Assembly: GCA_963712475.1 (NCBI GenBank)
Contig: CAVQIA010000006.1
Location: 70,290-134,289, forward strand
Reading direction: 5' to 3'
Source: an uncultured Chloroflexia bacterium
GTDB lineage: Bacteria; Chloroflexota; Anaerolineae; Anaerolineales; RBG-16-64-43
DNA: 64,000 bases
The translations under genes were made by a program, and so were the position numbers. Below the pieces are notes generated by a model. It did no database searches. It saw nothing but the letters and a program-made list of their open reading frames with translations, and was not told the origin of the DNA. Shown piece by piece: positions 31,271 to 60,748 of the stretch; the stretch's first letter is position 1, and each line of letters opens with the position of its first letter.

Positions 31271-31322
31271 CGAACGGCGCGCCGCAGAATCGACGTGCGC
31301 GACGATAGCAGGAGGCTTCCCT

Positions 31323-39666: not shown

Positions 39667-40392
39667 ATGCGCCTCGAGCCGCCCGTGCCCGTCTCACGCG
39701 AAGAGTACACCCTCAATGTCCGGGATATCGAACCGCTGCTCCAGGGCTACCCTATGGCGATGAAGCCATGGCCCCCGGCGACGATCAAGCTCCCGACCGG
39801 TGAGTTGATGTTCATTCGAGAGGCGAAGATCGAGGAAGCCAAGACACTTATGCAGTACGTCCGCAAAGTCATGGATATCGAGCACGACTTCTATGACATT
39901 GTCGGCGCCAGGGTGTACGCCGAGCTGCTCGGGTGGTACCGCAAGCGCCTCAAGGATCCGTACGTCATGATCGGGATGATCGACGGTAAGCTGGCCGGGC
40001 TGGTCAATGGCCGCCTGATGAACGAAGACATCAACATCAGCCATCACACGATGACCTTCCATCGCGGCGGCCGCCTGGGCGCCGCGCTCTTCTATTGCAA
40101 GGCGTACTATGCCTTCGAGATTCTTGGCCAGAAGGAATTCTGGTCGACGTATGAGAGCTACAATGGCTGGCGCATCGGCTTCTTGGGTATGGCGCAGCCC
40201 AGCTACCCCTGGCCCGATGTTCAGCACGAGTTGGGTGGAGCCCGGGTGTACTACGTCACCAAGAAGTATTGGGACCAAGCGATCAAGAAGTACTCCGAAC
40301 AGCTGGTGGGCGCGCCGCTCAACTTCGATGTGCCGGAGAAGCTGATCAAGGCCAATGAGAAGTTCGTCGTGCCTGACGAAGTGACGGTCTAG
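39667..40392 (+). CDS. Atypical GNAT-like protein, paralog 1 (unknown function)
   Basis: 241 aa from residue 186 of ORF 39112..40392 (MRLEPPVPV). It is a clear paralog of 61715..62404, sharing DFYDIVGARVYAELLGWYRKR / DYYDIVSARLYGELLAWFRYR, GLVNGRLMNE / GIVNGRLENE and HELGG. The acetyl-CoA loop is degenerate (HRGGRLGAALF instead of RGxGxG). Confidence 0.6.
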   Translation: MRLEPPVPVSREEYTLNVRDIEPLLQGYPMAMKPWPPATIKLPTGELMFIREAKIEEAKTLMQYVRKVMDIEHDFYDIVGARVYAELLGWYRKRLKDPYVMIGMIDGKLAGLVNGRLMNEDINISHHTMTFHRGGRLGAALFYCKAYYAFEILGQKEFWSTYESYNGWRIGFLGMAQPSYPWPDVQHELGGARVYYVTKKYWDQAIKKYSEQLVGAPLNFDVPEKLIKANEKFVVPDEVTV

Positions 40393-40657: not shown

Positions 40658-42390
40658 ATGGCAGTAACCAAGGCTGAAGTTCGTTCGGGCGCCTATTACG
40701 ACTCAGTCGTCCTGATGCAGTTGCAGCGCGACTTGACGGAACAACCCGGCGTCCTGGATGCCGGAGTTGTCATGGGTACCGGCGCCAACAAGGAAGTCCT
40801 GGCGGAGAGCAACCTGCTGGTCCCTGAAGCCGAAGCTGCGGGCAATGACGATCTCATCATCGTCGTGCGCGGCACAGATGAGACCTCGGCTCGGGCGGCT
40901 CTGGCAAAGGTGGATGAGCTCGTGGCCGCACGCCATGGACGGGGAGGGGACCAAGAGTACCATCCCCGCAGCCTCGAGACCGCGGTCAAGATGTTGCCCG
41001 AGGCCCAGTGGGTCCTGGTTTCCGTTCCAGGGCGATACGCTGCCGGGGTGACGCGCCAGGCCTTGGGTCTCAACAAGCACATCTTCCTCTACAGTGACAA
41101 CGTCACCCTCGAAGATGAAGTCGCGCTCAAACAGGAAGCGGCCCGCAAAGGGCTCCTAGTCATGGGGCCGGATTGCGGCACAGCGATTGTGAACGGGATC
41201 GGCCTGGGGTTTGCCAACAAGGTCCGCAAGGGGCCGATTGGACTCGTGGCGGCATCCGGGACCGGCCTGCAGCAAGTCACGGTGCGCATTCATCAGATGG
41301 GAGGCGGCATCACGCATGCCCTGGGGACCGGGGGGCGTGACCTCTCGGAGGCCGTCAACGCCATCACCGCGCGTCAGGGGCTCGATCTGATGGCTCGCGA
41401 CCCGGACGCCAAGGTCATCGTCCTCGTCTCGAAGCCGCCCTCCTCCAAGATCGCGGATACCCTGGTCCAGGCGGCGCGTTCGGTCGGCAAGCCCGTGGTG
41501 GTCGATTTCATTGGCTACGCCACCGCCTCACGTCGGGTGGACAACGTTTTCTTTGCCACGACTTTCGATGAAACCGCTGAGCTCGCCATCCGTCTGGTCG
41601 ACTCGCCTGAGGACTTCACGTCGCAGCCGGACCGATCCAAATTCGCGCCCGGTCAGCGCTACCTGCGCGGCCTCTTCTCGGGCGGGACGTTACAGTACGA
41701 GGCACTGCTGATCCTGCAGAACTACGTTCCCGTGGTCTACTCGAACGCCCCGCTCGACAAGAAGAACAAGCTCGAAGAACTCTCTGGTCAGCAAAGCGCA
41801 CACGATCATCGACCTGGGCGAGGACGAGTTTACAGTCGGCCGTCTGCATCCGATGATGGACAACGATCTCCGCATTCGGCGAACTCGAGAAAGAAGCCTC
41901 CGACCCGGAGGTGGCCGTCATCCTGCTGGACGTGGTTCTAGGCTTCGGCGCGCACAGCGATCCGGCGAGCGAGTTGGCTCCGGCGATCGCCGCCGCCATC
42001 CAGTCTGCACAGCAGGCCGGCCGGCACCTGGAGGTGGTGGCGATCGTCAGCGGCACCGATGGAGACCCGCAGGGGATCGAAGCGCAAATCAAGCGGCTGA
42101 GAGATGCCGGTGCCAAAACCGAGACCAGCAACGATGCAGCCGCTCGCTATGTGGGTCGATTGCTCCAAGCGATTGAACGCGCAACCCCGCCCGGCACCGG
42201 GCCGACGGCGATGCCGGTCGACCTGCGGGCGCTCAAGCAACCCATGGCGGGCATCAACGTTGGCCTGGAGTCCTTTGCGGAGAGCCTGACGGCGCAGGGG
42301 GCCCAGGCTGTTCACGTGGACTGGAAGCCCGTCGCCGGATCCAGTGAACGGTTGGTGAGTATTCTGGAGCGGATGAAAAAAGCGCAATAG
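40658..42390 (+). pseudogene. fdrA: FdrA-like protein (succinyl-CoA-synthetase-alpha-like CoA-binding/ligase fold), interrupted by two frameshifts (about 41780-41790 and 41880-41900)
   Basis: ORF 40658..41941 reads YYDSVVLMQL...VSVPGRYAAGVTRQAL...VMGPDCGTAIVNGIGLGFAN...GLVAASGTGLQ..THALGTGGRD. The next block SKAHTIIDLGEDEFTVGRLHPMMDNDLRIR is in a second frame (ORF 41853..42176). The rest, ELEKEASDPEVAVILLDVVLGFGAHSDPA..., is in ORF 41911..42390. Confidence 0.8.
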
Positions 42391-42559: not shown

Positions 42560-43807
42560 GTGCTCATGGATATCGAAAAGGCGAACGCCCAAGTCACCCA
42601 GCGCATGATGGACTCCCGGCCGATCGCAACCACGTTGGCCAAGGCAATTGAGGTCGTGCCCGGGCTGCGCGAGAATATGCTCCTGCACGCGGGCCCTCCG
42701 GTGACCTGGGAGCGCATGTCTGGCCCGATGCGCGGCGCGATGATGGGGGCCCTGATTCTCGAGGGCAAGGCCAAGAGCGGTGACGACGCAGAGAAGATGC
42801 TCAAGTCGGGCAAGATCGAGTTCTCGCCCTGCCATGAGCACATGTGCGTCGGCCCCATGGCCGGCGTGATCTCGCCTTCCATGCTGGTGTATGTCATCGA
42901 GAATCAGACCTACAAGATCACGTGCTTCTCCAATCTCAATGAGGGCCGCGGCAAAGTCCTGCGCATGGGCGCCTACGGGCCGGAGGTCCTGGAGAAGCTG
43001 CGCTGGATGGAGTCCACTCTCGGGCCGACGATCAAAGCTGCATTGGAGGCCATCGGCGGCGTGGATGTCCGCTCCATCCTGGCAAAGGCGCTCCACATGG
43101 GCGATGACGGACACAACCGTCTGGACGCCGCCTCGGTCCTGTGGACCACTCAACTCGCACCGTTCATCGCCAAGACCGCCAAAGACTCCGCCACGGCGTT
43201 CGAGGTCATCAAGTTCCTTGGCGAGAACGCCTTGAGCATTCTCAACCCGGTCATGGCCGGCTGCAAGACGATGACCGCCGCCGGTCACAATGTGGAAGGC
43301 AGCACCATCGTCACCATCATGGCGCGCAATGGAACCGATTTCGGCATCCAGGTCAGCGGCCTGGGCGACAAATGGTTCACGGCGCAGTCCCCGATAGTCA
43401 AGGCGCTCTACTTCCCGGGCTTCACAGAGTCGGACGCCTGCCGCGACATCGGTGACAGTGTCATCACCGAAACGGCCGGCATCGGGGGCTTTGCCATGGC
43501 GGCCGCTCCCGCTCTGGTCACCTTCATTGGCGGCGTGCCGCGGGACGCTATTAACACGACCCTCGACATGTACGAAATCACCTATGCCGAACACAAGCAA
43601 TTCACCATCCCTTACCTGGATTTCCGCGGCACCCCGACCGGAATCGATATCCGCAAGGTGGTGGAAAAGCAGATCGCCCCGCGGGTGAACACGGGCGTCG
43701 CGCACAAGGACCCAGGAATTGGTCAAGTCGGGGCGGGCGTCGTTTCTGCCCCCTTAAGCATGTTCGAAGACGCACTGGTGGCCTTCGCTGATCGTTACGG
43801 CTTCTAA
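42560..43807 (+). CDS. DUF1116-family protein (YlbE-like partner of FdrA)
   Basis: 415 aa. The pattern LLHAGPPVTWERMSGPMRGA...FSPCHEHMCVGPMAGVISPSM...NEGRGKVLRMGAYGPEV...MGDDGHNR...TIMARNGTDFGIQVSGLG matches what I recognise as YlbE/DUF1116. It lies directly downstream of fdrA, as in the E. coli fdrA-ylbE arrangement. Confidence 0.8.
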   Translation: MLMDIEKANAQVTQRMMDSRPIATTLAKAIEVVPGLRENMLLHAGPPVTWERMSGPMRGAMMGALILEGKAKSGDDAEKMLKSGKIEFSPCHEHMCVGPMAGVISPSMLVYVIENQTYKITCFSNLNEGRGKVLRMGAYGPEVLEKLRWMESTLGPTIKAALEAIGGVDVRSILAKALHMGDDGHNRLDAASVLWTTQLAPFIAKTAKDSATAFEVIKFLGENALSILNPVMAGCKTMTAAGHNVEGSTIVTIMARNGTDFGIQVSGLGDKWFTAQSPIVKALYFPGFTESDACRDIGDSVITETAGIGGFAMAAAPALVTFIGGVPRDAINTTLDMYEITYAEHKQFTIPYLDFRGTPTGIDIRKVVEKQIAPRVNTGVAHKDPGIGQVGAGVVSAPLSMFEDALVAFADRYGF

Positions 43808-43835: not shown

Positions 43836-45509
43836 ATGGACCGCGAATCCTTCATCACAATGATGGCCCAGGCCAAGCTGCACGACCTGACCCAAGCCTG
43901 CAGCGTGTTCACTCCCCCTTGGCCCGGGGAGAAATCGCTCGAAGTGCACTTTTTCAAGCGCGTCACCGGCGCATACGGCGGCGGCCAGGGCGCCAACGGC
44001 CAGATCCTCAACTGGAGCAACACGGTCGGCACGCACCTGGTGGGCGAACGGGCATTCCATTCCGGCGGCCGCGCCATCGCGGATATTCCCCTGAAAGACC
44101 TATCCGGTCCCGGCGTGATCGTCGACATCTCGGACATGGTTTCGGATTACAGCATCATCACCCCAGAGATGATCACCAAGAAGGTCGAGGTCAAGAAGGG
44201 TGACATCCTGATCATCAACACCGGGTATCACAAGTACTCGTGGGACCAACCCCAGGTGAACAACCCGAAGGCGCAGGGCGGCGTGGAATCCATGGAATTC
44301 GGCTTCCTCGTCCGCCATCCGGGTCCCTCCATGGCCTTCTACAAGTGGGCCCTGGATATGAAGCTCAAGGTCATCGGAGTGGACTGCGGCGCCGCTGAGC
44401 ACCCGATGAACACCCCGATCCGACGCATGCACGAGAACCACTTCAAGCTGGCCGAGGAGAAGCTGAAGCGGGAAACCGGCAAGACCTGGGACGAGACCTT
44501 CCCGCAGGGCGAGTACTACGAGCTCACCCACATCACCATGCCCAAGCAGCATCTCGTCTTGGCCGAGTGCATCGTCGGCGAAATCGACCAGCTGAAGAAC
44601 AAGCGCGCCTGGATCCAGATCATGCCGATCCCCTTCATGGAAGTGGAGACCGCCTGGGCGCGTGTCTCCGCGCTGACCGCTCCGGCCGGCATGAGCGAAG
44701 ATGCGTTCCTGACCGCGATGCAGGGCTCGGAGATGATCGACATGACCGTGCCCTTCAGCGTCCAGACCCCGCAGTGGCTCAACTACATTCCGCTGAGCGT
44801 CACCTTCACCAAGCGCGTGGGCGGGCAGTATTTCGGCATGGGACGCAACGGGTCGATCTGCAATGCCAGTATCCACCTTGGCACGCACATGGACGGCGAG
44901 AAGCACTTCTACCCCAACGGACGGACGATTGGTCAAGTGCCGCTCTCGGAATGGGTCGGCCCCGGGGTCATCGCCGACATCTCCACCTTGGTCAGCGACT
45001 CGAGTGTCTACACGCCCAAGATGATCCAGGGAGTGGTCGACATCCGCAAGGGAGACATCCTGGTCATCAAGACCGGCTGGAACAAGTTTGGCTGGTGCAG
45101 CAAGGATTCGGATGAGTTTCGCTATATGGTCAAGCACCCGGGTCCTTCGGCCGATTTCTCCAAGTGGGCGGCCGATCTGGGGCTCAAGTGGATCGGCGTG
45201 GACGCCGTATCGGCGGACCACCCGATGAACACCATCATGCGCCTGTGGCACCCCAAGACGTTTGCCGAGGCCAACGCCAAGCTGGTCAAAGATTTCGGCA
45301 AGGACTGGGACCAGATGTACCCGCTTGAAGGTTTCTATCAGGACATGCACCTCAACCTGTTCCCCAAGAAGATCGTACACGCCGAGAACCTTGCAGGAGA
45401 TATCGCCGGCGCGCAGAGCGGCCGCTACTACATTGGCTGCTATCCGCAGAAAGCCATGGAAGCGGAGTCGATGTGGGCTCGCTTCGTGGCCTTCAAAGAG
45501 GGCCGGTGA
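43836..45509 (+). CDS. Tandem-duplicated cyclase-family (kynurenine-formamidase/isatin-hydrolase-like) protein; N-terminal copy has a degenerate metal motif
   Basis: 557 aa made of two homologous halves. Half 2 keeps the HxGTHxDxxxH motif (HLGTHMDGEKHF), and half 1 reads TVGTHLVGERAF at the aligned place. Both halves share GDILxIxTGxxK/HxxW, HPGPS, IGVDxxxAxHPMNT and AExxxGxI with the stand-alone paralog at 60749..61630. Confidence 0.78.
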   Translation: MDRESFITMMAQAKLHDLTQACSVFTPPWPGEKSLEVHFFKRVTGAYGGGQGANGQILNWSNTVGTHLVGERAFHSGGRAIADIPLKDLSGPGVIVDISDMVSDYSIITPEMITKKVEVKKGDILIINTGYHKYSWDQPQVNNPKAQGGVESMEFGFLVRHPGPSMAFYKWALDMKLKVIGVDCGAAEHPMNTPIRRMHENHFKLAEEKLKRETGKTWDETFPQGEYYELTHITMPKQHLVLAECIVGEIDQLKNKRAWIQIMPIPFMEVETAWARVSALTAPAGMSEDAFLTAMQGSEMIDMTVPFSVQTPQWLNYIPLSVTFTKRVGGQYFGMGRNGSICNASIHLGTHMDGEKHFYPNGRTIGQVPLSEWVGPGVIADISTLVSDSSVYTPKMIQGVVDIRKGDILVIKTGWNKFGWCSKDSDEFRYMVKHPGPSADFSKWAADLGLKWIGVDAVSADHPMNTIMRLWHPKTFAEANAKLVKDFGKDWDQMYPLEGFYQDMHLNLFPKKIVHAENLAGDIAGAQSGRYYIGCYPQKAMEAESMWARFVAFKEGR

Positions 45510-46422: not shown

Positions 46423-46985
46423 GCACCGAGTTGGCGAACTACCTGGAACGAATCGAGGACCTGCGCGGACAGGTCTCGGCTCTCGTCGCCGGCTTGACGG
46501 CGGAAGCCATCAACTGGCGGCCGCTGCAAGGGACCGGGGCCCATGCCACCAATTCCCTGGCGGCACTGGCCGCCCATTGCGCCGGGGCCGAGCATTTCTG
46601 GATCGCGGAGGTTGTCGGCGGTCGTCCGGCGACCCGCAACCGGGAGGCGGAGTTCGAGACACGGGCGGCCGCCTCAGCGGACATCATCCTGCTGCTAGAG
46701 AAGGTGGGGGCGGAGACCCGGCAGGTCTTTGTGACGCTCAATGACACCGATCTGAATGAGACGCGTGAGACCGCGGGTCGCACGATGCCCATACGTTGGT
46801 GCCTGTTGCATGTGATCGACCATACTTCCCTTCACTTGGGGCACATGCAGGTCACTTTCCAACTGTGGGCAGGCGGCCAGAGCTTTCCGTCGCCGCACTG
46901 GTTCGAACGCTTGCCCCATCAACCCAAACGCGAGCAAAGCCCCACTCATGGCATGGCCGATCGTCCTGGAGATGAGAGTCTATGA
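46419..46985 (+). CDS. DinB/YfiT-like four-helix-bundle metalloprotein family
   Basis: 188 aa with the typical DinB spacing of His residues (AAHCAGAEHFW ... HVIDHTSLHLGHM). Its start overlaps the NmrA stop and its end overlaps the next gene start, which suggests translational coupling. Confidence 0.7.
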   Translation: MSTELANYLERIEDLRGQVSALVAGLTAEAINWRPLQGTGAHATNSLAALAAHCAGAEHFWIAEVVGGRPATRNREAEFETRAAASADIILLLEKVGAETRQVFVTLNDTDLNETRETAGRTMPIRWCLLHVIDHTSLHLGHMQVTFQLWAGGQSFPSPHWFERLPHQPKREQSPTHGMADRPGDESL

Positions 46986-47863
46986 AGCCAGCCCCCTTCG
47001 ACTACTACGCGCCCACAACAGTAGAGCAAGCTCTGGCTCACCTGGCCGAGTACGGGGAAGATGCCAAAGTCCTCGCCGGCGGGCAGAGCTTGGTCCCGAT
47101 GATGAACTTCCGGCTGGTCCAGCCCTCCGTATTGGTGGACCTCAACTCCATCCCGGACCTGGCGTACATTCGCCCCGACGAGGATGGCGGCGTGCGCATC
47201 GGAGCCCTGACCCGTCACTTTCAGGTTGAGATGGATCCTCTGGTTGAGGCACGGGTGCCGCTGCTGCACGAAGCCGTGCCCAAGATTGGCTATCCACAAA
47301 TCCGACGGCGCGGCACGTTTGGCGGGAGCATTTGCCATGCAGATCCGTCGGCGGAGCTCGTCACTGTGAGCGTTGCCCTGAACGGGCGCTTCCGGCTGCG
47401 CAGCCCCAAAGGTGAACGATGGGTCCCGGCGGAGGAGTTCTTCATCGGCTTGTTCACCACGGTCTTGCAGCCGGGTGAGCTGATGGTCGAGGCGGCCCTG
47501 CCACAATGGCCGGCACGCACCGGAGAGTCCTTTATCGAGGTGGCTCGCCGCAGTCACGACTTCGCGCTGGTCGGAGTTGCGGCCGTGGTGACTTTGGACG
47601 CGAAGGGCATCTGCCGGCAGGTGCGAATGGTGTTCATGAGCGCCGGGGACCGGCCGATGCTCGCGCGACGAGCGGCAGAGGCGCTGATCGGGCAGCGGCC
47701 CACACCGGAAGCGATACAGGCCGCGGCCGAAATCGCCGCCTCGGACGACATCGACCCGAGCAGCGACATTCACGCCACAGCGGAATTCCGCCGCCATCTG
47801 GCAAAGGTCCTGGGTCAGCGTGCCCTCGAGCGGGCATGCCAACGAGCCGCGGAGAAGAAATAA
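46982..47863 (+). CDS. Molybdenum hydroxylase (xanthine dehydrogenase/CoxM family) FAD-binding medium subunit, operon 1
   Basis: 293 aa with FDYYAPTTVEQALAHL, VLAGGQSLVPMMNFRL, RRRGTFGGSICHADPSAEL and ATAEFRRHLA. Confidence 0.9.
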   Translation: MKPAPFDYYAPTTVEQALAHLAEYGEDAKVLAGGQSLVPMMNFRLVQPSVLVDLNSIPDLAYIRPDEDGGVRIGALTRHFQVEMDPLVEARVPLLHEAVPKIGYPQIRRRGTFGGSICHADPSAELVTVSVALNGRFRLRSPKGERWVPAEEFFIGLFTTVLQPGELMVEAALPQWPARTGESFIEVARRSHDFALVGVAAVVTLDAKGICRQVRMVFMSAGDRPMLARRAAEALIGQRPTPEAIQAAAEIAASDDIDPSSDIHATAEFRRHLAKVLGQRALERACQRAAEKK

Positions 47864-47864
47864 G

Positions 47865-48383
47865 ATGGCCACCACGGAGCCAACCATGCCCAAGCTGTTC
47901 GATCTGGCCCTGACCGTCAACGGCGAGCGTTATGAACGAGCCGTTGAACCGCGCCTGCTGCTCAGCGATTTCCTGCGTCACAGCCTCGGCCTGAGCGGGA
48001 CCCATGTGGCCTGCGAGCACGGCGTGTGCGGGGCCTGCACCGTCCTGCTCGAGGGGGAACCGGTGCGCTCGTGTCTGCTCTTTGCCGTACAGGCGCATGG
48101 GCGCAGTGTGACCACGGTCGAAGGTCTCGGCGACATGGACCGGCTGCACCCGGTGCAGGAGGCGTTCCGGCAAGCGCACGGTGTGCAGTGCGGATTCTGC
48201 ACGCCTGGGATCCTGACCACCGTGGTGGCCTTCCTGGCCAGGAACGCCGACCCGACCGAGGAAGAGATTCGCGAAGCCCTTTCCGGGAATCTATGCCGCT
48301 GCACGGGCTACCAACATATCGTGGACGCCGTGCAGCTGGCCGCCAAGAACATGAAGACCGCACAACAGCAGCCCGCCCGTTGA
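47865..48383 (+). CDS. Molybdenum hydroxylase [2Fe-2S] small subunit (CoxS family), operon 1
   Basis: 172 aa from residue 16 of ORF 47820..48383. Both cluster motifs are present: CEHGVCGACTV and CGFCTPG...CRCTGY. Confidence 0.92.
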   Translation: MATTEPTMPKLFDLALTVNGERYERAVEPRLLLSDFLRHSLGLSGTHVACEHGVCGACTVLLEGEPVRSCLLFAVQAHGRSVTTVEGLGDMDRLHPVQEAFRQAHGVQCGFCTPGILTTVVAFLARNADPTEEEIREALSGNLCRCTGYQHIVDAVQLAAKNMKTAQQQPAR

Positions 48384-48429
48384 TGGAGGCACCTTCCATC
48401 CGTCGTGGGGTGACCCCAGGAGCAGATCT

Positions 48430-50748
48430 GTGACCAAGAAACTCGTCGGACAGCGCGTGTTGCGCAATGAGGACCCTCGCTTGTTGACCGGGCATGCCCA
48501 GTTCGTCGACGATGTGGAGATCCCCGGTTTGCTGCACGCCGCCTTCTTGCGTAGCGACTATGCCCACGCTCGCCTGCTCAGCATCGATGTGAGCGCCGCC
48601 CGCCAACATCCGGGCGTGGTAGCCGTCTTTACGGCGGAAGATATGGGTGACGATTGGGAGCCAGGCCCGCCACTCGTCTCTCCCCCGCCCACGGCCAAGG
48701 ATGTCCTGTTCAACTCGCGCCGGCAGGTTCCACTGGTCAAAGACAAGGTCCGGCATGCGGGCGAGGCAATCGCCGTGGTCATCGCCGAAAGCCGGTACAT
48801 CGCCGAAGATGCGGTCGAAGACATCGTGGTGGACTTGGAGCCCCTGGAGGTGGTGGTCGATCTCGAGAAAGCCCTGCAACCGGGCAGTCCCCTGGTGCAC
48901 GATGACCTGGAGTTGAATCTGGCTGCCCGCCTGTCGCAGAAAAAGGGCGACTATGAGGCCGCCCGGCGAAAGGCGGATCTGGTCCTCCAGCGTCGAATCG
49001 TCATCGACCGCGGGGCGGCGGCCGCCATGGAGAATCGCGGCATCGTCGCCGACTGGGACGAAAAGAGTCAGCATCTCACCATGTGGGACACAACCCAGGC
49101 GCCGATCCCGATCCGCAACGGAACGGCGGCGCGGCTGGGCCTGTCGGAGAGCCAGGTAAGAGTGATCGCCCCCTTCATCGGAGGCGGGTTCGGTCCGAAG
49201 ATGATGATGTTCTACGCCGAGGAGTTGGTGATTCCCTGGGCGGCGGTAAAGCTGAAGCGCCCGATCAAGTGGATCGAGGACCGGCGGGAGAACTTCTACG
49301 CCACCACCCAAGAACGCGGGCAGATCCATGACGTCGAGATCGCCCTCAGCCGGGATGGGCACATCCTGGGTCTGAAAGACATGTTCCTGCATGACACGGG
49401 CGCCTATGACCCCTACGGCCTGACGATCCCCCTCAACACCCAGTGCCATGCAATGGGGGGGTACGACATCAAGAACTTCAGCACGGAAGTGAGCGTGGTA
49501 TTCACCAACAAGACCCTGGTCACCCCCGTTCGGGGGGCGGGACGCCCTCAGGGGATCTACATCATCGAACGACTGCTCGACATCGCCTCCAAAGAGTTGG
49601 GAATCGACCCCGTGGAAATCCGTCGGCGCAACCTGATCCCGCCGGATGCCTTTCCATATGAACACGGGATCATCGACCAGGCCTTCGCGCCGCTCATTCT
49701 GGATAGCGGCAACTACTGGCCCGTCATGCAGAAGGCCTTGGAGATGATCGGCTACGAGAAGTTCGTCCGCGAGGAGCAACCCCGCCTACGCAAAGAAGGG
49801 AAGTTCGTGGGTATCGGCATCACGCCGTTCATCGAGTTGACCGGCGTGGGTCCCTACGAAGGTGCCCGGGTGACGGTCGAGACCAGCGGCAAGATCCATG
49901 TTGCCACGGGGGTCGGCACCCAGGGGCAGGGCCACTTCACCTCCTTCGCTCAAATCGTGGCTGATCAGCTCGGGGTGGCGGTGAGCGATGTGCGCATCGT
50001 GTCCGGCGACACGGCCGAGTTTCACTGGGGAACCGGCACGTTCGCCAGCCGCGGTGCTGTCGTCGCCGGCAATGCCTTCCACGCCGCCGCCTCGATCGTT
50101 CGTCGCAAGGTGCTGGAACTCGCGAGCAAGGAACTGCAGACCCCCCCGGAGGAACTGGAGCTCGAGGACGGTCTGGTGCGCGTCGCGGATATCCCCGGCA
50201 AGTCCATCAGCCTGGGCGAGCTTGCCGCGCTGGCCAACCCCTTGCGCGGCGCCGTCCAACCGGGCACCGAACCCGGCCTGGAAGCCACATCCTACTTCGG
50301 CCCCAGCTACGGCGCCACGGCCTTCGGCACACATGCCATGATCCTCGAGATCGACCCTGAAACCATGATGATCCAAATCAAGCGCTACGTCACGGTCGAG
50401 GATTGCGGTACGGTGCTCAACCCCTTGATCCTCGAGGGCCAGATCCACGGTGGCGTATCCCTGGGCATCGGCAACGCCTACTACGAGCAGCTCCACTTCG
50501 ACGAGAACGGACAGCTGCTCAACGCCTCCTTTGCGGATTATCTGATCCCGTCGGCGACGGAGATGCCGCGCATCCAAGTTGGCCATATGGAAACCCGCTC
50601 CCCGCTGAACGAATTGGGCACAAAGGGAGTTGGCGAAGCGGGAACGATCCCCGTGCCTGCCCTCTTCGCGCAGGCCGTCGAGAATGCGCTGGCCGATCGG
50701 GGGTTGGAAATCCTTGGAGACTCCCCTCAGCCCGAACCGGCTGTATGA
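48430..50748 (+). CDS. Molybdenum hydroxylase molybdopterin-binding large subunit (CoxL/xanthine dehydrogenase family), operon 1
   Basis: 772 aa with a GTG start. It has LVGQRVLRNEDPRLLTGHAQFVDD, FIGGGFGPK, VTPVRGAGRPQG and GVGEAG. It lacks the Cys-containing CSFR loop of true CO dehydrogenases. Confidence 0.9.
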   Translation: MTKKLVGQRVLRNEDPRLLTGHAQFVDDVEIPGLLHAAFLRSDYAHARLLSIDVSAARQHPGVVAVFTAEDMGDDWEPGPPLVSPPPTAKDVLFNSRRQVPLVKDKVRHAGEAIAVVIAESRYIAEDAVEDIVVDLEPLEVVVDLEKALQPGSPLVHDDLELNLAARLSQKKGDYEAARRKADLVLQRRIVIDRGAAAAMENRGIVADWDEKSQHLTMWDTTQAPIPIRNGTAARLGLSESQVRVIAPFIGGGFGPKMMMFYAEELVIPWAAVKLKRPIKWIEDRRENFYATTQERGQIHDVEIALSRDGHILGLKDMFLHDTGAYDPYGLTIPLNTQCHAMGGYDIKNFSTEVSVVFTNKTLVTPVRGAGRPQGIYIIERLLDIASKELGIDPVEIRRRNLIPPDAFPYEHGIIDQAFAPLILDSGNYWPVMQKALEMIGYEKFVREEQPRLRKEGKFVGIGITPFIELTGVGPYEGARVTVETSGKIHVATGVGTQGQGHFTSFAQIVADQLGVAVSDVRIVSGDTAEFHWGTGTFASRGAVVAGNAFHAAASIVRRKVLELASKELQTPPEELELEDGLVRVADIPGKSISLGELAALANPLRGAVQPGTEPGLEATSYFGPSYGATAFGTHAMILEIDPETMMIQIKRYVTVEDCGTVLNPLILEGQIHGGVSLGIGNAYYEQLHFDENGQLLNASFADYLIPSATEMPRIQVGHMETRSPLNELGTKGVGEAGTIPVPALFAQAVENALADRGLEILGDSPQPEPAV

Positions 50749-51229: not shown

Positions 51230-51493
51230 CGAGACCAGCTGGCATGGGAGGCTGCCTCGGAAGCCACGCCTCGATTGGCGCTTTCAGCGATAAGACTGTA
51301 CCATCGTGGGCATAGCGAGTGGTCGTGCGGTTGGCAGCAGCCCAGGCACAACATGGTCCGATCCTGATCATGCTCCATCAGAACGCCAGATGATGAGACA
51401 AGCGAAGGGAGGTCAACGGCTTATCGACAACTAGCCCGGCTTCGAATCTCCACTATCCGGCTCCATTCTCAGATGATCCTGAGGGAGGAAGAG

Positions 51494-52801
51494 ATGATGT
51501 CCAAGAAGTCCTTCGTATTCGCAGCGTTGCTCCTGGTCGCCAGCATGGTGCTGGGTTCCTGCGCACCCGCGGCGCCCACGGCTGCGCCCGTGGTCGAGCA
51601 GCCGACGGCCGCGCCTGCGGTCGAGCAACCCACGGAGGCTGTCGCCCAGCCAACCGCGGAACCAGTGAAGATCACCCTGGCGATTGAGCACTTCAGTGTC
51701 ATCGCGGGAACCACCTGGTCCGGCGCCCAAGACCGCGCGGGCAAGCGCATCGCGGCGAAGTATCCGAACGTCACCTACGTCTACCGCGAGAATGTCGCTC
51801 CCGATCAGACCAATCCTTTCGCCGAAGAGATGATCGCCAGCGGGGCGAACATCGTGATCGGCAATGCCGAGTTCATGGGCCTGCCTCTGAAGGACATCGC
51901 CGATAAGTATCCGGATGTGTACTTCGGATCGGTCATCGCCAGTGACCTCGCGACCAAGCCGAATTTCATTCGGTTCTTCCCCAAGCAGGATCAGGCCCTG
52001 TACCTGGAAGGGCTGATCGCGGGGGCCCTGACCAAGACGGGCAATATCGGCATCACCTCCGCGTTCCCGTGCGTGCAGGTGATCCGGCGCCAAGCCGGCT
52101 TCATCCTAGGCGTGCAGGATGCGGCCGCGCTGCTCAACAAGAAGATCACCGTGTACGTCAAGTTCGCCGGCGACTGGTACCTGCCTGCCGATGAGCGCGC
52201 CATCGCCGAGACGCTGGTCGACACCTACAAGGTGGATGTCCTGACCCAGCAGACAGACTCCAGCTCCACCATGGACGTGGCCAAGGAGAAGGGCGTCTGG
52301 TTCGTGGGCAAGGACATGGACATTGTGGGTGAATACGGCTGGTCCGACTTGAACACCGTGGCCGTATCGTTCGACACGCGCTGGGAGGTCATCTACGAGC
52401 AGATGGTCAAGGAGTTCATGGCGGGCAATAAGGCGCCAGAGACTGTCATGTATCCAGGATTTGAGACGACGATGACCCTGGCCGACGGCACCGTGGAACC
52501 GACGATTGACCTGATGAATGCCGGCAAGATCGGTGTCGAGGCCATCAGCCCGGCGGCGCTGCCCTCCATCCCGCAGTCGATCCTCGACCTCGTCAAGCAG
52601 CGACGTGAGCAGATGATGGCCGGTACGTGGGACCCGTTCACGACGCACGAGTTCGTGAGCAATGGAACGGGCCTTGAGCTCCCGGGCCTGCCGATCCCGG
52701 CCGCGGGCACAGTGGCAAAGGCTGCCGGCGTGGCTCCAACCACCGAGTTCCTGCTGGCCCAGTTCAACTACGATCTCGCCGGCACGACCATCCTGAAGTA
52801 G
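51494..52801 (+). CDS. BMP-family (PnrA/Med-like, nucleoside-type) ABC transporter substrate-binding lipoprotein
   Basis: Lipobox MMSKKSFVFAALLLVASMVLGSC, then an Ala/Pro linker, then a BMP-like body (NIGITSAFPCVQVIRRQAGFILG, VDVLTQQTDS). It sits upstream of the matching ATPase and two permeases. Confidence 0.8.
   Translation: MMSKKSFVFAALLLVASMVLGSCAPAAPTAAPVVEQPTAAPAVEQPTEAVAQPTAEPVKITLAIEHFSVIAGTTWSGAQDRAGKRIAAKYPNVTYVYRENVAPDQTNPFAEEMIASGANIVIGNAEFMGLPLKDIADKYPDVYFGSVIASDLATKPNFIRFFPKQDQALYLEGLIAGALTKTGNIGITSAFPCVQVIRRQAGFILGVQDAAALLNKKITVYVKFAGDWYLPADERAIAETLVDTYKVDVLTQQTDSSSTMDVAKEKGVWFVGKDMDIVGEYGWSDLNTVAVSFDTRWEVIYEQMVKEFMAGNKAPETVMYPGFETTMTLADGTVEPTIDLMNAGKIGVEAISPAALPSIPQSILDLVKQRREQMMAGTWDPFTTHEFVSNGTGLELPGLPIPAAGTVAKAAGVAPTTEFLLAQFNYDLAGTTILK
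51581..51655 (+). repeat. Imperfect 27-nt tandem repeat encoding the lipoprotein linker
   Basis: gctgcgcccgtggtcgagcagccgacg / gccgcgcctgcggtcgagcaacccacg / a partial third unit. These encode AAPVVEQPT-AAPAVEQPT-EAVAQPT. Confidence 0.7.
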
Positions 52802-53035
52802 CACGGCGTGTCGGTCCGCATGAAGTGTGACGTCTAGTCACCGACAGGTGAGGCTCTTGTCCTGGGGGAGCAAGCCATGGGACGAGAGCCTCACGCTTCG
52901 GCAGGGGTCGGAGACGCCCCGGCGGGTTCACGCGGGGCGGCCGCTCGTGCGCGGCCTGAGGTGCAGGTCCGCGTTTCCCGGTGAGTTTGTCGAAGGCGGC
53001 CAGGCAACACCACCGGCAGGCGACAGGTTGACAGC

Positions 53036-54584
53036 ATGCCCATCCAACCCGTGAAGCGCGGCGATATCGTCCTCGAGGCGAGGGGAATCACCAAACGATT
53101 CCCCGGGGTCGTCGCCAACGACCACATCGACTTTGAGATCCGAGCCGGTGAGATTCACGCCATCCTGGGCGAGAACGGCGCCGGCAAGACGACCTTGATG
53201 AAGATCCTGTTCGGGCTGCTCCAGCCCGACGAGGGCGACATTTACGTCCAGGGGGAGAAGGTGACCTTCCGCTCACCGCTGGATGCCATCCACCTGGGCA
53301 TCGGGATGGTTCATCAGAACCGCAAGCTGATCCCGGCTCACACGGTGATTGAGAACATCATCCTGGGTCATCCCAAGGCCGGGAGCATTCCAGACCTGAA
53401 GCGAACCCGCGAGGAGATTGCGGAGATCTGCGACCGATACGGCTTCAAGATCGATCTGAAGGCGAAGGTCTGGCAACTGTCGGAAGGCGAGAAGCAAGCC
53501 GTCGAAATCCTGAAGACCCTCTATCGAGGCGCCCGAATCCTCATCCTGGATGAGCCCACCTCCGCGCTGGCGCCCCCCGAAACCAAGAAGCTCCTGGCGT
53601 CGATTCGCATCATGACCGGCGACGATCTCGCTCTCGTGCCGTTCATCACCCACAAACTACCCATCGTGTTGACCATCAGTGAGCGGGTCACGGTTCTGCG
53701 GCGGGGCAAGGTCACCGCGCGTCTGCGGACTTCGGAGGCGACCGAGGACAGCCTGGCCAGAGAAATGGTCGGCCGCGAAGTCATCTTCCGCCTGGACCAT
53801 GTGCAGGTGGAGCGGGGCAAGCCCATTCTCGAGGTGGAAAATCTCTCCGCCCTGAATGACAAGGGGCTCCTGGCCCTCAAGGACGTCACCTTCACCGTGC
53901 ATGAAGGCGAGATCTTCGGCATTGCCGGAGTCTCCGGGAACGGACAGCAGGTTCTGGCTGAGGTGCTGGCAGGGCTGCGCAAGGCCGCGGCTGGCAAAGT
54001 GCTGATTGATGGGATCGACATCACTCGTTCCGGCAGCCTGGAACGCTGGAAGAACGGCATGGGCTACATCCCTTCGGACCGGATCGATGTGGGTTCGATC
54101 GGCGCCTACTCGCTGGTCGACAACGTCCTGATGAACTACTACTTTGACGGAGCCTACTCCCGCTGGGGGGTCATCGATTCCCAGAAAACGCGCAAACTGA
54201 CCGAAGGACTTATTTCCGAGTACGACATCGCCACGCCCGGCCCGGACACGACGGCCAAGAGCTTGTCGGGCGGCAATCTCCAAAAGCTGATCCTGGCGCG
54301 GGTGCTCTCCCGCAAGCCGCGGCTCATCATCGCCAATCTCCCAACCCAGGGGCTGGATGTCGGGAGCCACCGAGTTTGTCCAGAACAAGCTGTTGGAAGC
54401 GAAGCGGCAGCACGCAGCCATACTGCTCATCTCGGAGGACCTTGAAGAGGTCTTGTCGCTGAGCGACCGCGTGGCGCCGATCTACGAGGGCGAGTTCATG
54501 GGCATCATCCAGGTCAAAGACGCCCGAATCGAGGACGTCGGCGCCATGATGGCAGGTTTGAAGCAGAAGGTCGAACAGCCATGA
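53036..54584 (+). pseudogene. ABC transporter ATPase with two fused ABC domains (sugar/nucleoside importer type), interrupted by one frameshift (about 54355-54365)
   Basis: ORF 53036..54445 has GENGAGKTT, LSEGEKQAVEI, ILILDEPTS, GVSGNGQQ and LSGGNLQK, and reads sensibly up to ...NLPTQGLDVG. The tail ATEFVQNKLLEAKRQHAAILLISEDLEEV... is in ORF 54357..54584. Confidence 0.82.
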
Positions 54585-55693
54585 AACTCGGCAGCTATGA
54601 GGTCAAACTCGAAAAGAAAGTCAGGGTCACCGGCCTGGAGGCGACGGCCATCTCCGTGCTGGCGATCCTCATCGGCTTGGCGCTGGTGGGGTTGGTCTTC
54701 CTGCAGGCCGGGGTCAATCCGCTGACCGGCTACCGGGCCATCTTCTCCTACGCCTTCCTCAACAAGTTCGGCCTGCCCCTGACGATCAACCGATCGGTCT
54801 TCATCCTGCTGTGCACCTGCGCGTTCATTGTCCCCATGAAGGCCGGGCTGTGGAACATCGGCATGGCCGGCCAGCTGTACGGCGGCACGCTGGCCGCCTT
54901 CGGCGTGGCGCTGGCCTTCGGCGCCAAAGATCCCCAGGTGCCGACTGCGGCGCCGGGGATCGTCATCGCCCTGATGATGCTCGGGGCGATCCTGGGCGGC
55001 GCGCTGATCGGCGCCATCCCAGGCTTCCTCAAGGGCAGGTTCAACACCAACGAGATCGTCGTGACCATGATGCTGAACTCGATCGGCTTCTGGCTGATCG
55101 CATTCATGATCAAGGAAGGCGGTCTCTTTATGGGCGGGGGCGGGGAAGGCCAGGGGTACAAGCTATCCGAGTCGATCTTCGGGCCCATGCTGTTGGGAGG
55201 GACATTCACCATCCCGATTGCCCTGGGCGTTGCGGCGCTGCTCTACTTCATGTTCGCCAAGACGACTCTCGGCTACCAATTCAAGGCATTTGGCCTCAGC
55301 CCGTCGGCCGCCAAGTACTCGGGCATCAGCCCGCAGAACGTGCCGCTGCTGGTGTTCATCCTGGGTGGGCTCATTGCCGGCCTGGCTGGTTACCACTATT
55401 TCGCTGCTGTCCCCGGGGTGTACAAGATCCCCACGAACTACGGGGACTTCGGCGATCTGTCTTTCTACGGGATCATCTGCGGGCTGATCTCCCAAGGCAA
55501 CCCACTCGCGGCCATTCCCTTCGCCCTGCTGTTCGGCGGGCTGACGAACGGGGGCCGGTTCGTTCAAGGACAACTCCAGCTGGGCTATGGCATCGACTAT
55601 GCTCTGCTCGGGGTTCTGATGATTACTTTGGTCGCCTTCCAGTTCTTCTATCGCAACACCCTCGTCTGGAAGAAGATCGAAAGGAAGCCCTAG
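54581..55693 (+). CDS. ABC transporter permease (BMP/nucleoside-type system)
   Basis: 370 aa and polytopic. Its start overlaps the ATPase stop. Confidence 0.82.
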   Translation: MKLGSYEVKLEKKVRVTGLEATAISVLAILIGLALVGLVFLQAGVNPLTGYRAIFSYAFLNKFGLPLTINRSVFILLCTCAFIVPMKAGLWNIGMAGQLYGGTLAAFGVALAFGAKDPQVPTAAPGIVIALMMLGAILGGALIGAIPGFLKGRFNTNEIVVTMMLNSIGFWLIAFMIKEGGLFMGGGGEGQGYKLSESIFGPMLLGGTFTIPIALGVAALLYFMFAKTTLGYQFKAFGLSPSAAKYSGISPQNVPLLVFILGGLIAGLAGYHYFAAVPGVYKIPTNYGDFGDLSFYGIICGLISQGNPLAAIPFALLFGGLTNGGRFVQGQLQLGYGIDYALLGVLMITLVAFQFFYRNTLVWKKIERKP

Positions 55694-55694
55694 C

Positions 55695-56570
55695 ATGTGG
55701 GAGTTTGCGGCGCGAAGCCTGAATGCCTCGACGGTCTTCACGATTGCGGCGCTGGGCGAGCTGATCGGACAGCGCTCGGGCGTCCTGAACGTTGGCATCG
55801 AGGGGGTGATGCTCTTCGGAGCCACGGTGGGGTTCATCGTGGCCAAGACCACCGGGAGCTATCTCCTCGGCTGCCTTGCGGCCATTGCCATCGGAGGCCT
55901 CATCGCCGCGCTACACGGTTTGTTCTCCATCACGCTGGGGGGCGACCAGGTCGTGAACGGCATGGGGATCTGGATCCTCGGATTCGGCCTGACGGCTTAC
56001 ATCGGCTACCCCTACACGGGACCGCTGGGCCTGGAGCGCATCCCCGGCCTGCTGGGGCTTTCGCCCTTCTTCTTCCTGGCCATCGGGCTCGTGATCCTGA
56101 CCTGGTGGATGTTCTCCAAGACCAGCCTGGGGCTGCGCATCCGTTCGGCCGGGGAGAACCCCTCGGTCACCGAAGTCTCCGGGATCAACGTCACCCGGAC
56201 CCGTTACCTGAGCGTCGTGGCCAGCGGAATGCTCATGGGCCTGGGCGGGGCGATCTACTCGCTGAGCTACAACCCGGTCTGGAGCGTCAATTTTCTCCTG
56301 GGGTGGGGTTTCATTGCGCTGGCGCTGGTCTTTTTCTCCATGTGGAATCCCTTCATTCTTTTCGCCGGGTCCATCCTGTTCGGCACTCTGTGGCAGCTCT
56401 CGCTCAACCCTCAGCTGGTTCTTCCGAACGTGCTGTCCCGGTACATCTGGAGAACCGTGCCGTTCGTCATCACGATCGCTGTCCTGGTGTTGATGTCCAC
56501 GAAGTGGTTCAGTTCGCGATGGGGCGCCGCCAAGCCCCAAGCCCTGGGGCTGCCCCGCCAAGAGGAGTGA
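55695..56570 (+). CDS. ABC transporter permease (second subunit)
   Basis: 291 aa and polytopic, directly abutting the first permease. Confidence 0.82.
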   Translation: MWEFAARSLNASTVFTIAALGELIGQRSGVLNVGIEGVMLFGATVGFIVAKTTGSYLLGCLAAIAIGGLIAALHGLFSITLGGDQVVNGMGIWILGFGLTAYIGYPYTGPLGLERIPGLLGLSPFFFLAIGLVILTWWMFSKTSLGLRIRSAGENPSVTEVSGINVTRTRYLSVVASGMLMGLGGAIYSLSYNPVWSVNFLLGWGFIALALVFFSMWNPFILFAGSILFGTLWQLSLNPQLVLPNVLSRYIWRTVPFVITIAVLVLMSTKWFSSRWGAAKPQALGLPRQEE

Positions 56571-56713: not shown

Positions 56714-57607
56714 ATGACTACCCATCCCACTCTTCCAGAGTTTGACTATCTTCGCCCTCGGACGCTGGCCGAGGCCAGCGAGTTCCTTTCCCGTCACACC
56801 GGAGAGGCCCGAGCGTTCATGGGCGGAACGGATGTCTTCGTTCGCATGCGGGATGGATTCCTGACTCCCCGTGTTCTGGTGGACGTGAAGGGGCTGGACG
56901 GGACGGACGATCTGCGGTTTGACGCGAAGTCTGGCCTCACGCTCGGTGCTGCCGTCAGCATGAATCGGGTGATTGCCTCTCCCGAGGTGCGGACCCACTA
57001 TCCACTGCTGGCCGAGGCCTGCCGCTCCGTCGCCAGCTATCCGCTACGCACTCGGGCGACGGTCGTGGGCAACATCTGCAACGCTTCGCCCGGCCGGGGA
57101 CACCATCGGCGCTTGCCTGGTGTTGGGGGGTGTGCTCCACGTGCATGGAGTCAAGGGCGCGCGCCAGGAACCGCTGAAGTCCTTTTTCCTGGGCCCTGGC
57201 AAGACCACACTCGCCTCGGGCGATATCGTGACGGCCATTCACCTTCCTGTTCCACCCAAGGGGTGCGCGGGGATCTACATCAAGCTCGGACGCAACCAGC
57301 TGAGCGACCTCTCGATCGTGGGGGTGACCGTGTTGGGCCACCCGGACTCGAGCTGCCCGTCCGGCTACCGCTTTCGCCTGGCCCTGGCCTCGGTCGCCCC
57401 GGTGCCGCTCGTGCCCGTGGAGGCCGAGGGACACTTGGCCCGCCATCCGAGTCACGCCTGAGTCACTGCGCGCAGCGGCACAGCTCGCGGCCGACGCCTG
57501 CTCGCCGATCGACGACGTGCGCGGGAGCGCCAGGTATCGCAGGATTGATGGTGCGCAACCTGACCGCCAAGGCGTTGACCCAGGTGTGGAGCCAACTGAC
57601 TGGCTGA
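56714..57607 (+). pseudogene. Molybdenum hydroxylase FAD-binding medium subunit, operon 2, interrupted by three frameshifts (about 57085-57100, 57445-57460 and 57535-57550)
   Basis: FDYLRPRTLAEASEFL...FMGGTDVFVRM...RTRATVVGNICNASP is in ORF 56714. AGDTIGACLVLGGVLHVHGVKGARQEPLKSFFLGPGKTTL...LALASVAPVPLVPVEAE is in ORF 56973..57461. VTPESLRAAAQLAADACSPIDDVRGSARYRR is in the frame of ORF 57517. MVRNLTAKALTQVWSQL is back in the first frame. Confidence 0.75.
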
Positions 57608-57667
57608 CGCGTCGGCCGTTGCGAAAACCAGTTTATTCGGACTTGTCATCCGTCTTTCGAGGGCCAC

Positions 57668-58147
57668 ATGACACTTCACGAGATCCACGTCACCATCAAC
57701 GATGAGCCGGAACAGGTGACCGTGCCCGCCAATATGACTCTCATGCGCATGCTGCGAGAGAAGCTGGCGATGACCGGCACGAAGAACGGTTGCTCGGCCG
57801 GCGAGTGCGGCGCGTGTACCGTGTTGTTGAACGGAGAACCGGTCAATAGCTGCATGGTCCTGGCGGTTGAATGTGACGGAGCCCGGATCGTCACCGTGGA
57901 GGGGCTGGCCGAGGAACAACGGCTGGCGCCCGTTCAGGAAGCCATCCTCACTCAAGGGGGCGTGCAGTGCGGCTTCTGCACGCCGGGAATCCTGATCTCC
58001 TCGCACGCCCTGCTCGAGCGGAACCCGAATCCGGAGGAGGATGAGATCCGCGAGGCGCTGGTTGGTAACCTGTGCCGCTGCACGGGCTACACGCGCATTG
58101 TCGAGAGCGTCAGGGAAGCAGCCCGAATGCAATCGCCCGCCGGCTGA
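57668..58147 (+). CDS. Molybdenum hydroxylase [2Fe-2S] small subunit, operon 2
   Basis: 159 aa with [11 protein letters not shown] and CGFCTPG...CRCTGY. Confidence 0.92.
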
Positions 58148-58206
58148 CCTGCGGCTCGCGCAGGATCGGCCTGTCCGGGTCCGCACGGCCAGATGGGAGA
58201 GGATTG

Positions 58207-60561: not shown

Positions 60562-60748
60562 AGGTCGGACCGGCCTCGCCCAGGTCAGGCGCGTCGGATG
60601 ACGCGCTCCGACTGACCGGATGGAATCCGACCGCGGACGTACCACCCGGAGACCGTGCGCCGGCATGGTTAACCGATCGGGCACAGCATCGGTTGCGACG
60701 GTCGCGAGTTGGAAATGCAAGATCGAGAATCCACACAGGAGCATACCC

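Follow-up and report, generated by a model that had tools for sequence, protein, structure and literature searches.

A closed GNAT-fold protein family tied to ring-opening amidohydrolases in Chloroflexota and Actinomycetota, with a possible acyl-CoA-linked role in cyclic ureide catabolism

What is the function of two related proteins of no named family, when each is encoded near a putative cyclase that belongs to a family of metal amidohydrolases? The question is raised by a 64,000-nucleotide (nt) stretch of DNA from an uncultured Chloroflexia bacterium (Anaerolineales, RBG-16-64-43; GenBank assembly GCA_963712475.1, contig CAVQIA010000006.1, positions 70,290 to 134,289), referred to below as the window, which carries the genes X1 and X2. 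A preliminary description, made from the letters of the window alone, had presented them as a paralogous pair of atypical GNAT-like proteins. The analysis reported here places X1 and X2 in a small family, X, that accompanies ring-opening amidohydrolases in several phyla, and X is probably a missing enzyme of what appears to be a pathway for the breakdown of pyrimidine-like rings. More tentatively, X may carry out a step linked to acyl-coenzyme A (acyl-CoA) in the energy-conserving catabolism of barbiturate-type cyclic ureides, for which the oxidative pyrimidine route is the most likely setting.

Paralogy, fold and limits of the X family

Both open reading frames lie on the + strand at the positions first given. 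X1 and X2 are 39% identical (59% positives) over 168 amino acids (aa) in BLASTP, with an E value of 7e-39 that puts the match far beyond chance, and 36% identical across the full-length alignment, so the paralogy that had first been judged by eye stands. The start MRLEPP makes X1 as long as its homologs. The blocks described earlier, D(F/Y)YDIV.AR.Y.ELL.W.R.R.K, G.VNGRL.NE and HELGG, are present in both proteins and invariant in an alignment of 24 sequences (X1, X2 and 22 homologs). In this alignment about 25 charged or polar positions are invariant in X1-type and X2-type sequences alike, including D74, Y76, D77, R82, Y84, E86, R92, R94, K96, N114 and R116 in the first part, and S125, H127, R133, R136, K145, Y148, E163, S164, H187 and E188 in the second.

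Alignment-based AlphaFold2 models reach a predicted local distance difference test (pLDDT) of 76.9 and a predicted template modelling (pTM) score of 0.78 for X1, and values of 85.7 and 0.85 for X2. For both models, all of the top 50 Foldseek matches in the PDB are GNATs (E 1e-6 to 1e-4, TM score at most 0.62 on the target), among them PA3270, PatZ, Rv0998, S. lividans PAT, SpeG, RimJ and AAC(6')-Ib, and many of these structures were solved with CoA bound. The best matches of X2 are the GNAT domains of PatZ, PA3270 and Rv0998. Structure prediction followed by structural search thus leads to GNATs only, as the preliminary description had suspected, and both proteins are predicted to have the mixed alpha/beta GNAT fold (beta1-alpha1-alpha2-beta2-4-alpha3-beta5-alpha4-beta6-7).

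Whether used as single sequences or combined in a profile, X1 and X2 gave no meaningful match in Pfam-A (E<=0.1), NCBIfam (E<=1) or the sequences of the PDB, which agrees with the earlier failure to assign them to a named family. The sole matches, to FlbD, a GGDEF protein and a nanobody, are at chance level. Faint matches to Acetyltransf_1 (PF00583) occur in three of 25 diverse X members, the best with an E value of 0.0096. The window also encodes, at 815-3589, a 924-aa PatZ/Pat-type protein (CoA_binding, Succ_CoA_lig, ATP-grasp_5 and a canonical GNAT domain) that is unrelated to X in sequence, and when the X profile was compared with this bona fide GNAT domain by hhalign, only 24 N-terminal columns were aligned. 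Furthermore, when 1.84 billion cluster representatives were searched with an HMMER profile, 232 matches were obtained at E<=1e-3, many of them fragments and all of them members of X, with no bridge to other GNAT families. The family is therefore small and closed.

Database homologs number 1704 for X1, none of which has a Pfam domain, and 2704 for X2, the best 120 of which are 84-93% identical to it. Nearly all come from metagenomes and metagenome-assembled genomes (MAGs), some carry the NCBI name "N-acetyltransferase", and no homolog was found in a plasmid collection. The literature searched on the gene combination, on DUF1116, on ureidomalonase and on anaerobic barbiturate pathways contained no mention of X. 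While the fold is a known one, the family, its strict tie to ring-opening amidohydrolases and the pathway that this tie implies are not described in the libraries and papers searched.

A further question is posed by the loop that binds the CoA pyrophosphate in GNATs. The RGxRxG strings reported earlier, HRGGRLGA in X1 and DRGLRIGS in X2, are present, and in both models RGGRLG and RGLRIG fall in the beta4-alpha3 loop, at the pyrophosphate-binding position. Relative to GNAT motif A (Q/R-x-x-G-x-G/A), X1 and X2 keep the first Arg and the last Gly, and the central Gly is replaced by Arg. Among 25 diverse members the final Gly is invariant and the first Arg mostly retained. Position 4 is Asn, Gln or Glu in further members, and distant full-length members carry the canonical loops RQVGAG, RGAGIG and GTGIGA. 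Judging from these alignments, the Arg is therefore a trait of the X1 and X2 lineages rather than of the whole family and offers no evidence for lost CoA binding; the earlier idea that it alters or abolishes acetyl-CoA binding appears, if anything, weakened.

Ring-opening partners and the conserved gene set

A scan of one genome per species returned at least 582 X loci. The family occurs mainly in Chloroflexota, mostly in Anaerolineae and including the cultured Bellilinea caldifistulae GOMI-1, and in Actinomycetota (Acidimicrobiia, Mycobacteriales, Nanopelagicales and Solirubrobacterales), but also in Dormibacteraeota and one Bacillota MAG; the nearest relatives of the window are Anaerolineae MAGs. 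A panel of neighbour proteins was mapped by tblastn at 87 loci and at 80 further X2-type metagenome loci; counts out of 64 refer to the X genes flanked by 5 kb or more on either side.

A ring-opening amidohydrolase lies within 5 kb of X in 63 of the 64 cases, and it is either a PF04199 cyclase (46) or a member of the AtzD/TrzD/barbiturase family (17). Across all loci the cyclase occurs 61 times, at loci of Chloroflexota, a barbiturase-family gene 19 times, and the two together never; judged by record title, the 19 barbiturase-type loci (among L020-L085) all belong to Actinomycetota or Dormibacteraeota. In the genome set, X stands directly beside Cyc1, a single-domain cyclase gene located upstream of it, in 48 loci, and directly beside the barbiturase in nine. 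An Anaerolineales MAG (L014, a 256-kb contig) has an X that is 80% identical to X1 but lacks a cyclase or barbiturase as well as allF and allG over 10 kb, and it is the only full-flank X gene without any of these neighbours.

The actinobacterial partner that was examined (L035) scores 593 bits against the barbiturase of PDB 5hwe, with about 70% identity, versus at most 314 bits against cyanuric acid hydrolases, which marks it by similarity as a barbiturase ortholog. Cyanuric acid was considered as the substrate, as NCBIfam would name this neighbour cyanuric acid amidohydrolase, and was rejected: the protein is about twice as similar to the crystallised barbiturase as to any of the cyanuric acid hydrolases, and the linked carboxyltransferases, being acyl-CoA types, also disfavour it. 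At the same locus, a dihydropyrimidinase (TIGR02033, above cut-off) and a PIG-L deacetylase are encoded at 6636-9208, just upstream of the operon of X, carboxyltransferase and barbiturase. This pattern is found in five of the 64 cases, and genes of the reductive pathway type therefore adjoin the oxidative set.

At one actinobacterial locus with a barbiturase, X shares 77-85% identity with its best 120 database homologs, which include Anaerolineae proteins as well as proteins that also match X1. Such identity across two phyla speaks for one and the same reaction in each, and that X hardly changes beside hydrolases of two unrelated folds argues for a tie to a metabolite they share. Because no locus has both, the cyclase and barbiturase neighbours may be functionally equivalent, which suggests that cyclase-family enzymes perform the barbiturase step in Chloroflexota by non-orthologous replacement.

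These associations bear on the view that the conserved unit is a cyclase plus X. Within the window, each X does lie near a PF04199 gene: X2 starts 84 nt past the end of Cyc1, and Cyc2 is found 3.4 kb downstream of X1, with allF and allG in between. The co-occurrence also extends beyond this genome, since Cyc1 is upstream of X2 orthologs in 53 of 57 loci (with a thiolase downstream in all 57), in addition to the 46 cyclase cases above. However, a barbiturase-family gene takes the place of the cyclase in Actinomycetota and Dormibacteraeota, and the wider set also includes hydroxylases of the xanthine dehydrogenase (XDH) family, allF, allG and allH, and either a carboxyltransferase/decarboxylase or a thiolase. 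As the barbiturase that replaces the cyclase is of an unrelated fold and the two never occur together, the tie of X is to a step of metabolism and not to the cyclase as a protein.

AllFGH is the oxamic transcarbamylase of E. coli, which converts the acyl-ureide oxalurate into carbamoyl phosphate and oxamate (PMC11326118). Within 10 kb of X, AllF and AllG are each encoded in 37 of the 64 cases, AllH in 41, XDH-family subunits in 42, a PF01039 carboxyltransferase (CT) in 31, and OAD-beta and BCCP in 23 each. Since AllH co-occurs with X in these 41 cases, the idea that X is its stand-in was rejected. X shares operons with the mmdA-type carboxyltransferase, BCCP, OAD-beta and BioY, and an AccD/AccA-type carboxyltransferase follows it immediately in nine loci. 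Even among distant members, P0251 (41% identical) immediately precedes an mmdA-type carboxyltransferase gene and has BCCP, OAD-beta, biotin ligase and BioY in its vicinity, and P0267 comes right after a Cyc1-like gene. If the CoA_binding domain of AllF is set aside, the conserved set contains no acyl-CoA-forming fold other than X.

Several layouts recur. One is XDH-CT(mmdA type)-OADgamma-BCCP-OADbeta-[allF-allG]-Cyc1-X-[BioY]; another, X-allF-allG-Cyc2-XDH, is that of the X1 locus, and a third, XDH-[allF-allG]-Cyc1-X2-thiolase-DUF35-allH, is that of the X2 locus, where the window ends past DUF35. Actinomycetota have either X-CT(AccD/AccA type)-barbiturase-allH-allF-allG-XDH or allG-allF-allH facing X-barbiturase-XDH, and in Bellilinea (L059) allH faces Cyc1-X. 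The double-domain Cyc2 accompanies the X-allF-allG layout, and the single-domain Cyc1 the Cyc1-X layout. In some genomes two X1-type genes, 59-67% identical to X1, stand in tandem or close by (L002, at 9198-9926 and 10001-10726, L016, L023 and L038), and in L038 two entire modules lie back to back, allF-allG-Cyc1-X and then X-allF-allG-Cyc2-XDH. This doubling hints at hetero-oligomers or at parallel pathways for different substrates.

A possible pathway role and its alternatives

In the oxidative pyrimidine pathway, uracil is oxidized to barbiturate, from which barbiturase produces ureidomalonate, an acyl-ureide (PMC3758960). The genes around X would fit a related route. The XDH-family molybdoenzyme would hydroxylate the ring, as in the conversion of uracil to a barbiturate-type compound, and a ring-opening amidohydrolase (barbiturase in Actinomycetota, the cyclase-family metal hydrolase in Chloroflexota) would release an N-acyl-ureide such as ureidomalonate. 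The AllFGH-type transcarbamylase would then take off the carbamoyl group as carbamoyl phosphate, and X would handle the acyl group that is left. Preferably, its GNAT acyl-CoA site would be used from nitrogen to sulphur, moving the malonyl-type acyl of the ring-opened acyl-ureide or amide onto CoA. Transfer between nitrogen and the CoA thiol is proposed because X is the sole conserved acyl-CoA-type fold that could link both. While paralogy, fold, family limits and gene associations are results, the substrate, the use of CoA and the direction of transfer are inferred. Finally, the acyl-CoA could pass to the biotin-dependent carboxyltransferase and a Na+-pumping decarboxylase of the (methyl)malonyl-CoA type in X1-type and actinobacterial loci, or alternatively to the thiolase/DUF35 pair in X2-type loci.

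A bolder and more doubtful version of this scheme holds that X is a 'backwards' GNAT, which would transfer the acyl group of ureidomalonate or malonamate to CoA without ATP. Together with AllFGH, whose carbamoyl phosphate would yield ATP, and the Na+-pumping malonyl-CoA decarboxylase, it would constitute a hitherto unrecognised fermentation of pyrimidine-type rings that conserves energy, is widespread in Anaerolineae and Acidimicrobiia and has a cyclase-family hydrolase in the place of barbiturase.

Several points weigh against an acyl transfer of this kind. Moving an acyl group from a plain amide onto a thiol is uphill in thermodynamic terms and would need an activated acyl-ureide donor or the pull of the decarboxylase. 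If AllFGH acted first on the acyl-ureide bond, X would be left with malonamate, a poor donor, and the order of X and AllFGH is a weak point of the scheme. The carboxyltransferase is within 10 kb in only 31 of the 64 cases; many loci have neither it nor a thiolase in that range, and about half are without a CoA-ester enzyme nearby. Nor does the scheme explain a thiolase/DUF35 pair after a malonyl-type product. In addition, the NCBIfam scores of the XDH-family proteins are below every equivalog cut-off, no carbamate kinase was seen in the window, the sequence searches gave no match of X to a characterised GNAT, and the fourth position of the CoA loop is Arg in X1, X2 and their orthologs.

The default chemistry of the fold runs in the opposite direction, and X could be a forward GNAT that N-acylates an amine intermediate of the pathway with acetyl-, malonyl- or succinyl-CoA as donor, or that acylates a lysine of a pathway enzyme in the manner of a PatZ/Pat-like regulator. 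The top structural matches include the protein acetyltransferases PatZ, Rv0998 and S. lividans PAT, the NCBI name of some members points the same way, and the SCS-alpha-like AllF loosely recalls the ACS-like domain that is fused to the GNAT in PatZ. Yet a ureide-degrading route has no obvious free amine in need of acylation, and a regulator would be expected neither to stay 77-85% identical across phyla while the neighbouring hydrolase changes fold, nor to show translational coupling with the genes of a carboxyltransferase or a thiolase; forward acylation therefore seems unlikely. A CoA-independent X, with a degenerate GNAT site, would accommodate the Gly to Arg change in the pyrophosphate loop of X1, X2 and their orthologs. 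Such a protein might be a hydrolase or lyase of the ring-opened product (a non-homologous ureidomalonase or malonamidase), or else a non-catalytic subunit or scaffold of AllFGH or of the ring-opener. X adjoins the barbiturase (nine loci) or Cyc1 (48), which is where ureidomalonate consumption, as the following step of catabolism (PMC3758960), would be expected, and the literature searched assigns no gene to ureidomalonase. On the other hand, the loop retains its first Arg and last Gly and is of the canonical CoA type in distant members, the roughly 25 invariant charged or polar residues (S125, H127, R133, K145, E163, S164, H187 and E188 among them) favour catalysis over a scaffold, and X is unlikely to be the physical partner of hydrolases of two unrelated folds. 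CoA independence is about as unlikely as the forward reaction.

Two narrower explanations are considerably less probable. The conserved unit of the preliminary description would be a two-subunit enzyme, with X as the specific partner of the unusual cyclase. While Cyc1 is directly upstream of X in the 48 genome-set loci and in 53 of the 57 X2 loci, and the distant P0267 also follows a Cyc1-like gene, this is hard to reconcile with the 19 loci in which a Toblerone-fold barbiturase-family gene occupies the place of the cyclase despite 77-85% identity of X, or with the separation of X1 from Cyc2 by allF and allG in the window. GNAT-fold decarboxylases that act on malonyl groups exist, and they use His together with Ser or Thr. 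X might similarly remove CO2 from ureidomalonate or from a malonyl thioester (compare malonyl-CoA decarboxylase and the CurA GNAT loading domain), and the invariant S125-x-H127-T128 on beta4, the invariant H187 and the many loci without a separate decarboxylase would be in line with this. It would be redundant, however, in the many operons that X shares with a complete biotin-dependent decarboxylase (CT, BCCP and OAD-beta), and structures of malonyl-CoA decarboxylase or CurA are missing from the top 50 of both fold searches, so that decarboxylation is the least probable of the explanations.

An acyl-CoA-linked step after ring opening thus remains the preferred, if tentative, role of X. Environmental Chloroflexota and Actinomycetota carry thousands of members of the family, which has no Pfam or NCBIfam model and no characterised member, and its unusually informative neighbourhood points to a specific step once the ring of barbiturate-type compounds has been opened. 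Should the proposed role prove true, it would provide a function for X and a barbiturase-like role for the neighbouring 'putative cyclases', and it would extend the substrate range of the AllFGH transcarbamylase, an enzyme identified only recently, past oxalurate. It would also sketch the way in which abundant anaerobes, most of them uncultured, draw ATP and a sodium gradient from nucleobases. Importantly, experiments are feasible in the cultured Bellilinea caldifistulae GOMI-1, which has the allH-Cyc1-X arrangement.

The modules of the window and known systems

The X1 and X2 modules of the window (Table 1) are separated by an ABC transporter that consists of a binding protein, an ATPase and two permeases, and transporters of this Bmp/PnrA type recur near X at other loci.

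Table 1. Coordinates of X1, X2 and the neighbouring features in the window.
Feature	Position	Strand	Evidence or remark
X1, 241 aa, start MRLEPP	39667..40392	+	member of undescribed GNAT-fold family
allF (fdrA-type, CoA_binding + Ligase_CoA)	40658..42390	+	NCBIfam FdrA, 361 bits; Pfam CoA_binding, Ligase_CoA
allG (DUF1116, oxamate carbamoyltransferase subunit family)	42560..43807	+	Pfam PF06545, E 1.4e-88
Cyc2, tandem double PF04199 cyclase-family metal amidohydrolase	43836..45509	+	Pfam, two stretches, E 6e-58
XDH-family hydroxylase set 1 (FAD, 2Fe-2S and Mo subunits)	46982..50748	+	Pfam FAD_binding_5/CO_deh_flav_C, Fer2_2, MoCoBD_1/2
Bmp/PnrA-type (nucleoside-type) ABC transporter	51473..56570	+	Pfam Bmp, ABC_tran, BPD_transp_2 x2
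XDH-family hydroxylase set 2	56714..60561	+	FAD 56714-57607, 2Fe-2S 57668-58147, Mo ~58207-60561
Cyc1, single-domain PF04199 cyclase-family amidohydrolase	60746..61630	+	Pfam, E 9e-29; directly upstream of X2
X2, 229 aa, paralog of X1	61715..62404	+	open reading frame (ORF); BLASTP against X1
SCP-x/archaeal-type thiolase	62409..63599	+	Pfam Thiolase_N/Thiolase_C_1; NCBIfam PRK06064, 407 bits; 4 nt after X2
DUF35 (ChsH2-type zinc ribbon + OB), thiolase partner	63596..63946	+	Pfam zf-ChsH2, OB_ChsH2_C

In the X1 module, allF is spread over three frames, and comparison with the intact ortholog of L002 places one frameshift near 41775 and a second near 41885, about 110 nt farther on. In L001, too, gene calling gives two ORFs for allF, and the disturbed stretch in the window (41740-41960) reflects either an indel error of the assembly or a pseudogene or split gene. 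Cyc2 has 557 aa and results from an internal tandem duplication, each half being 45-47% identical to a single-domain homolog. The order of XDH set 1 after X-allF-allG-Cyc2 recurs in other genomes.

In the X2 module, the gene order of XDH set 2 is likewise found in X2-type operons. This set matches Pfam FAD_binding_5 and scores 516-524 bits with NCBIfam models of the XdhA and 4-hydroxybenzoyl-CoA-reductase-like type, below their cut-offs, and its 2Fe-2S subunit was assigned from the ORF translation and from tblastn matches of the set-1 subunit in related loci. In the FAD subunit only the first ~116 positions of FAD_binding_5 are matched and, unlike in set 1, CO_deh_flav_C is not, hence it may be divergent, or frameshifted like allF. 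The nearest solved relatives of Cyc1 are kynurenine formamidases, which are metal amidohydrolases, and the metal motif HxGTHxDxxxH is retained. DUF35 follows the thiolase in all X2-type loci, with allH next where the contig goes on; no allH was found within the window, which stops after DUF35.

Rfam scans of the window, of the 700 nt upstream of X1 and of seven related loci revealed no riboswitch that would name a ligand. A DUF2817 protein (M14/AstE-AspA-like deacylase, 37825-38961) and a DcuC-type anion carrier (36310-37779) are encoded directly upstream of X1 and are probably not part of the unit, because neither recurs near X in the 64 cases. Farther upstream, at 30255-33646, a B12-binding-domain protein on the minus strand stands beside a class-III aminotransferase and a pterin-binding (MtrH/CdhD-like) protein, and together these genes look like a corrinoid methyltransferase module.

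Compared with known systems, X is closest in structure to the GNAT superfamily, and in particular to PA3270 (1yre and 8gxj), PatZ (9it0), Rv0998 (4avb), S. lividans PAT (4nxy), SpeG and RimJ. It shares with them the predicted fold, the order of strands and helices and a typical N-terminal 'G..M.IR.A..E(D/E).P' at the beta1/alpha1 start, and it has R-x-x-x-x-G in the beta4-alpha3 loop at the position of the CoA pyrophosphate. Unlike GNATs, X falls below the threshold of the Pfam and NCBIfam models of that superfamily, is only 10-17% identical to its structural matches, has Arg at loop position 4 in X1 and X2, and has invariant charged residues outside the standard motifs. It also has extra segments of about 35 aa at the N-terminus and 40 aa at the C-terminus, and its genomic role is catabolic and pathway-specific. 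Malonyl-CoA decarboxylase and CurA GNAT-L are GNAT-fold proteins that act on a malonyl group and offer a possible functional analogy, although X, unlike them, co-occurs with a separate biotin-dependent decarboxylase.

The likeness to E. coli AllFGH (fdrA, ylbE and ylbF; PMC11326118) lies in allF and allG near X1 and in the presence of allF, allG and allH with X in most loci. In E. coli, by contrast, the AllFGH operon is not known to have an X homolog (PMC11326118), and the set linked to X goes with XDH-family and ring-opening enzymes rather than with allantoin genes; the substrate of the AllFGH-type enzyme in X loci is probably not oxalurate.

The oxidative pyrimidine pathway, with its uracil dehydrogenase, barbiturase and ureidomalonase, is resembled in Actinomycetota, where X stands by a barbiturase-family gene with XDH-family genes alongside, and the chemistry of that pathway yields an N-malonyl-ureide (PMC3758960). 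In Chloroflexota, including the window, a PF04199 cyclase-family hydrolase is found in the place of barbiturase. Whereas the classical pathway ends by hydrolysis in urea and malonate, the X set adds AllFGH, X itself and a Na+-pumping biotin-dependent decarboxylase or a thiolase, and these additions suggest an energy-conserving variant of the pathway.

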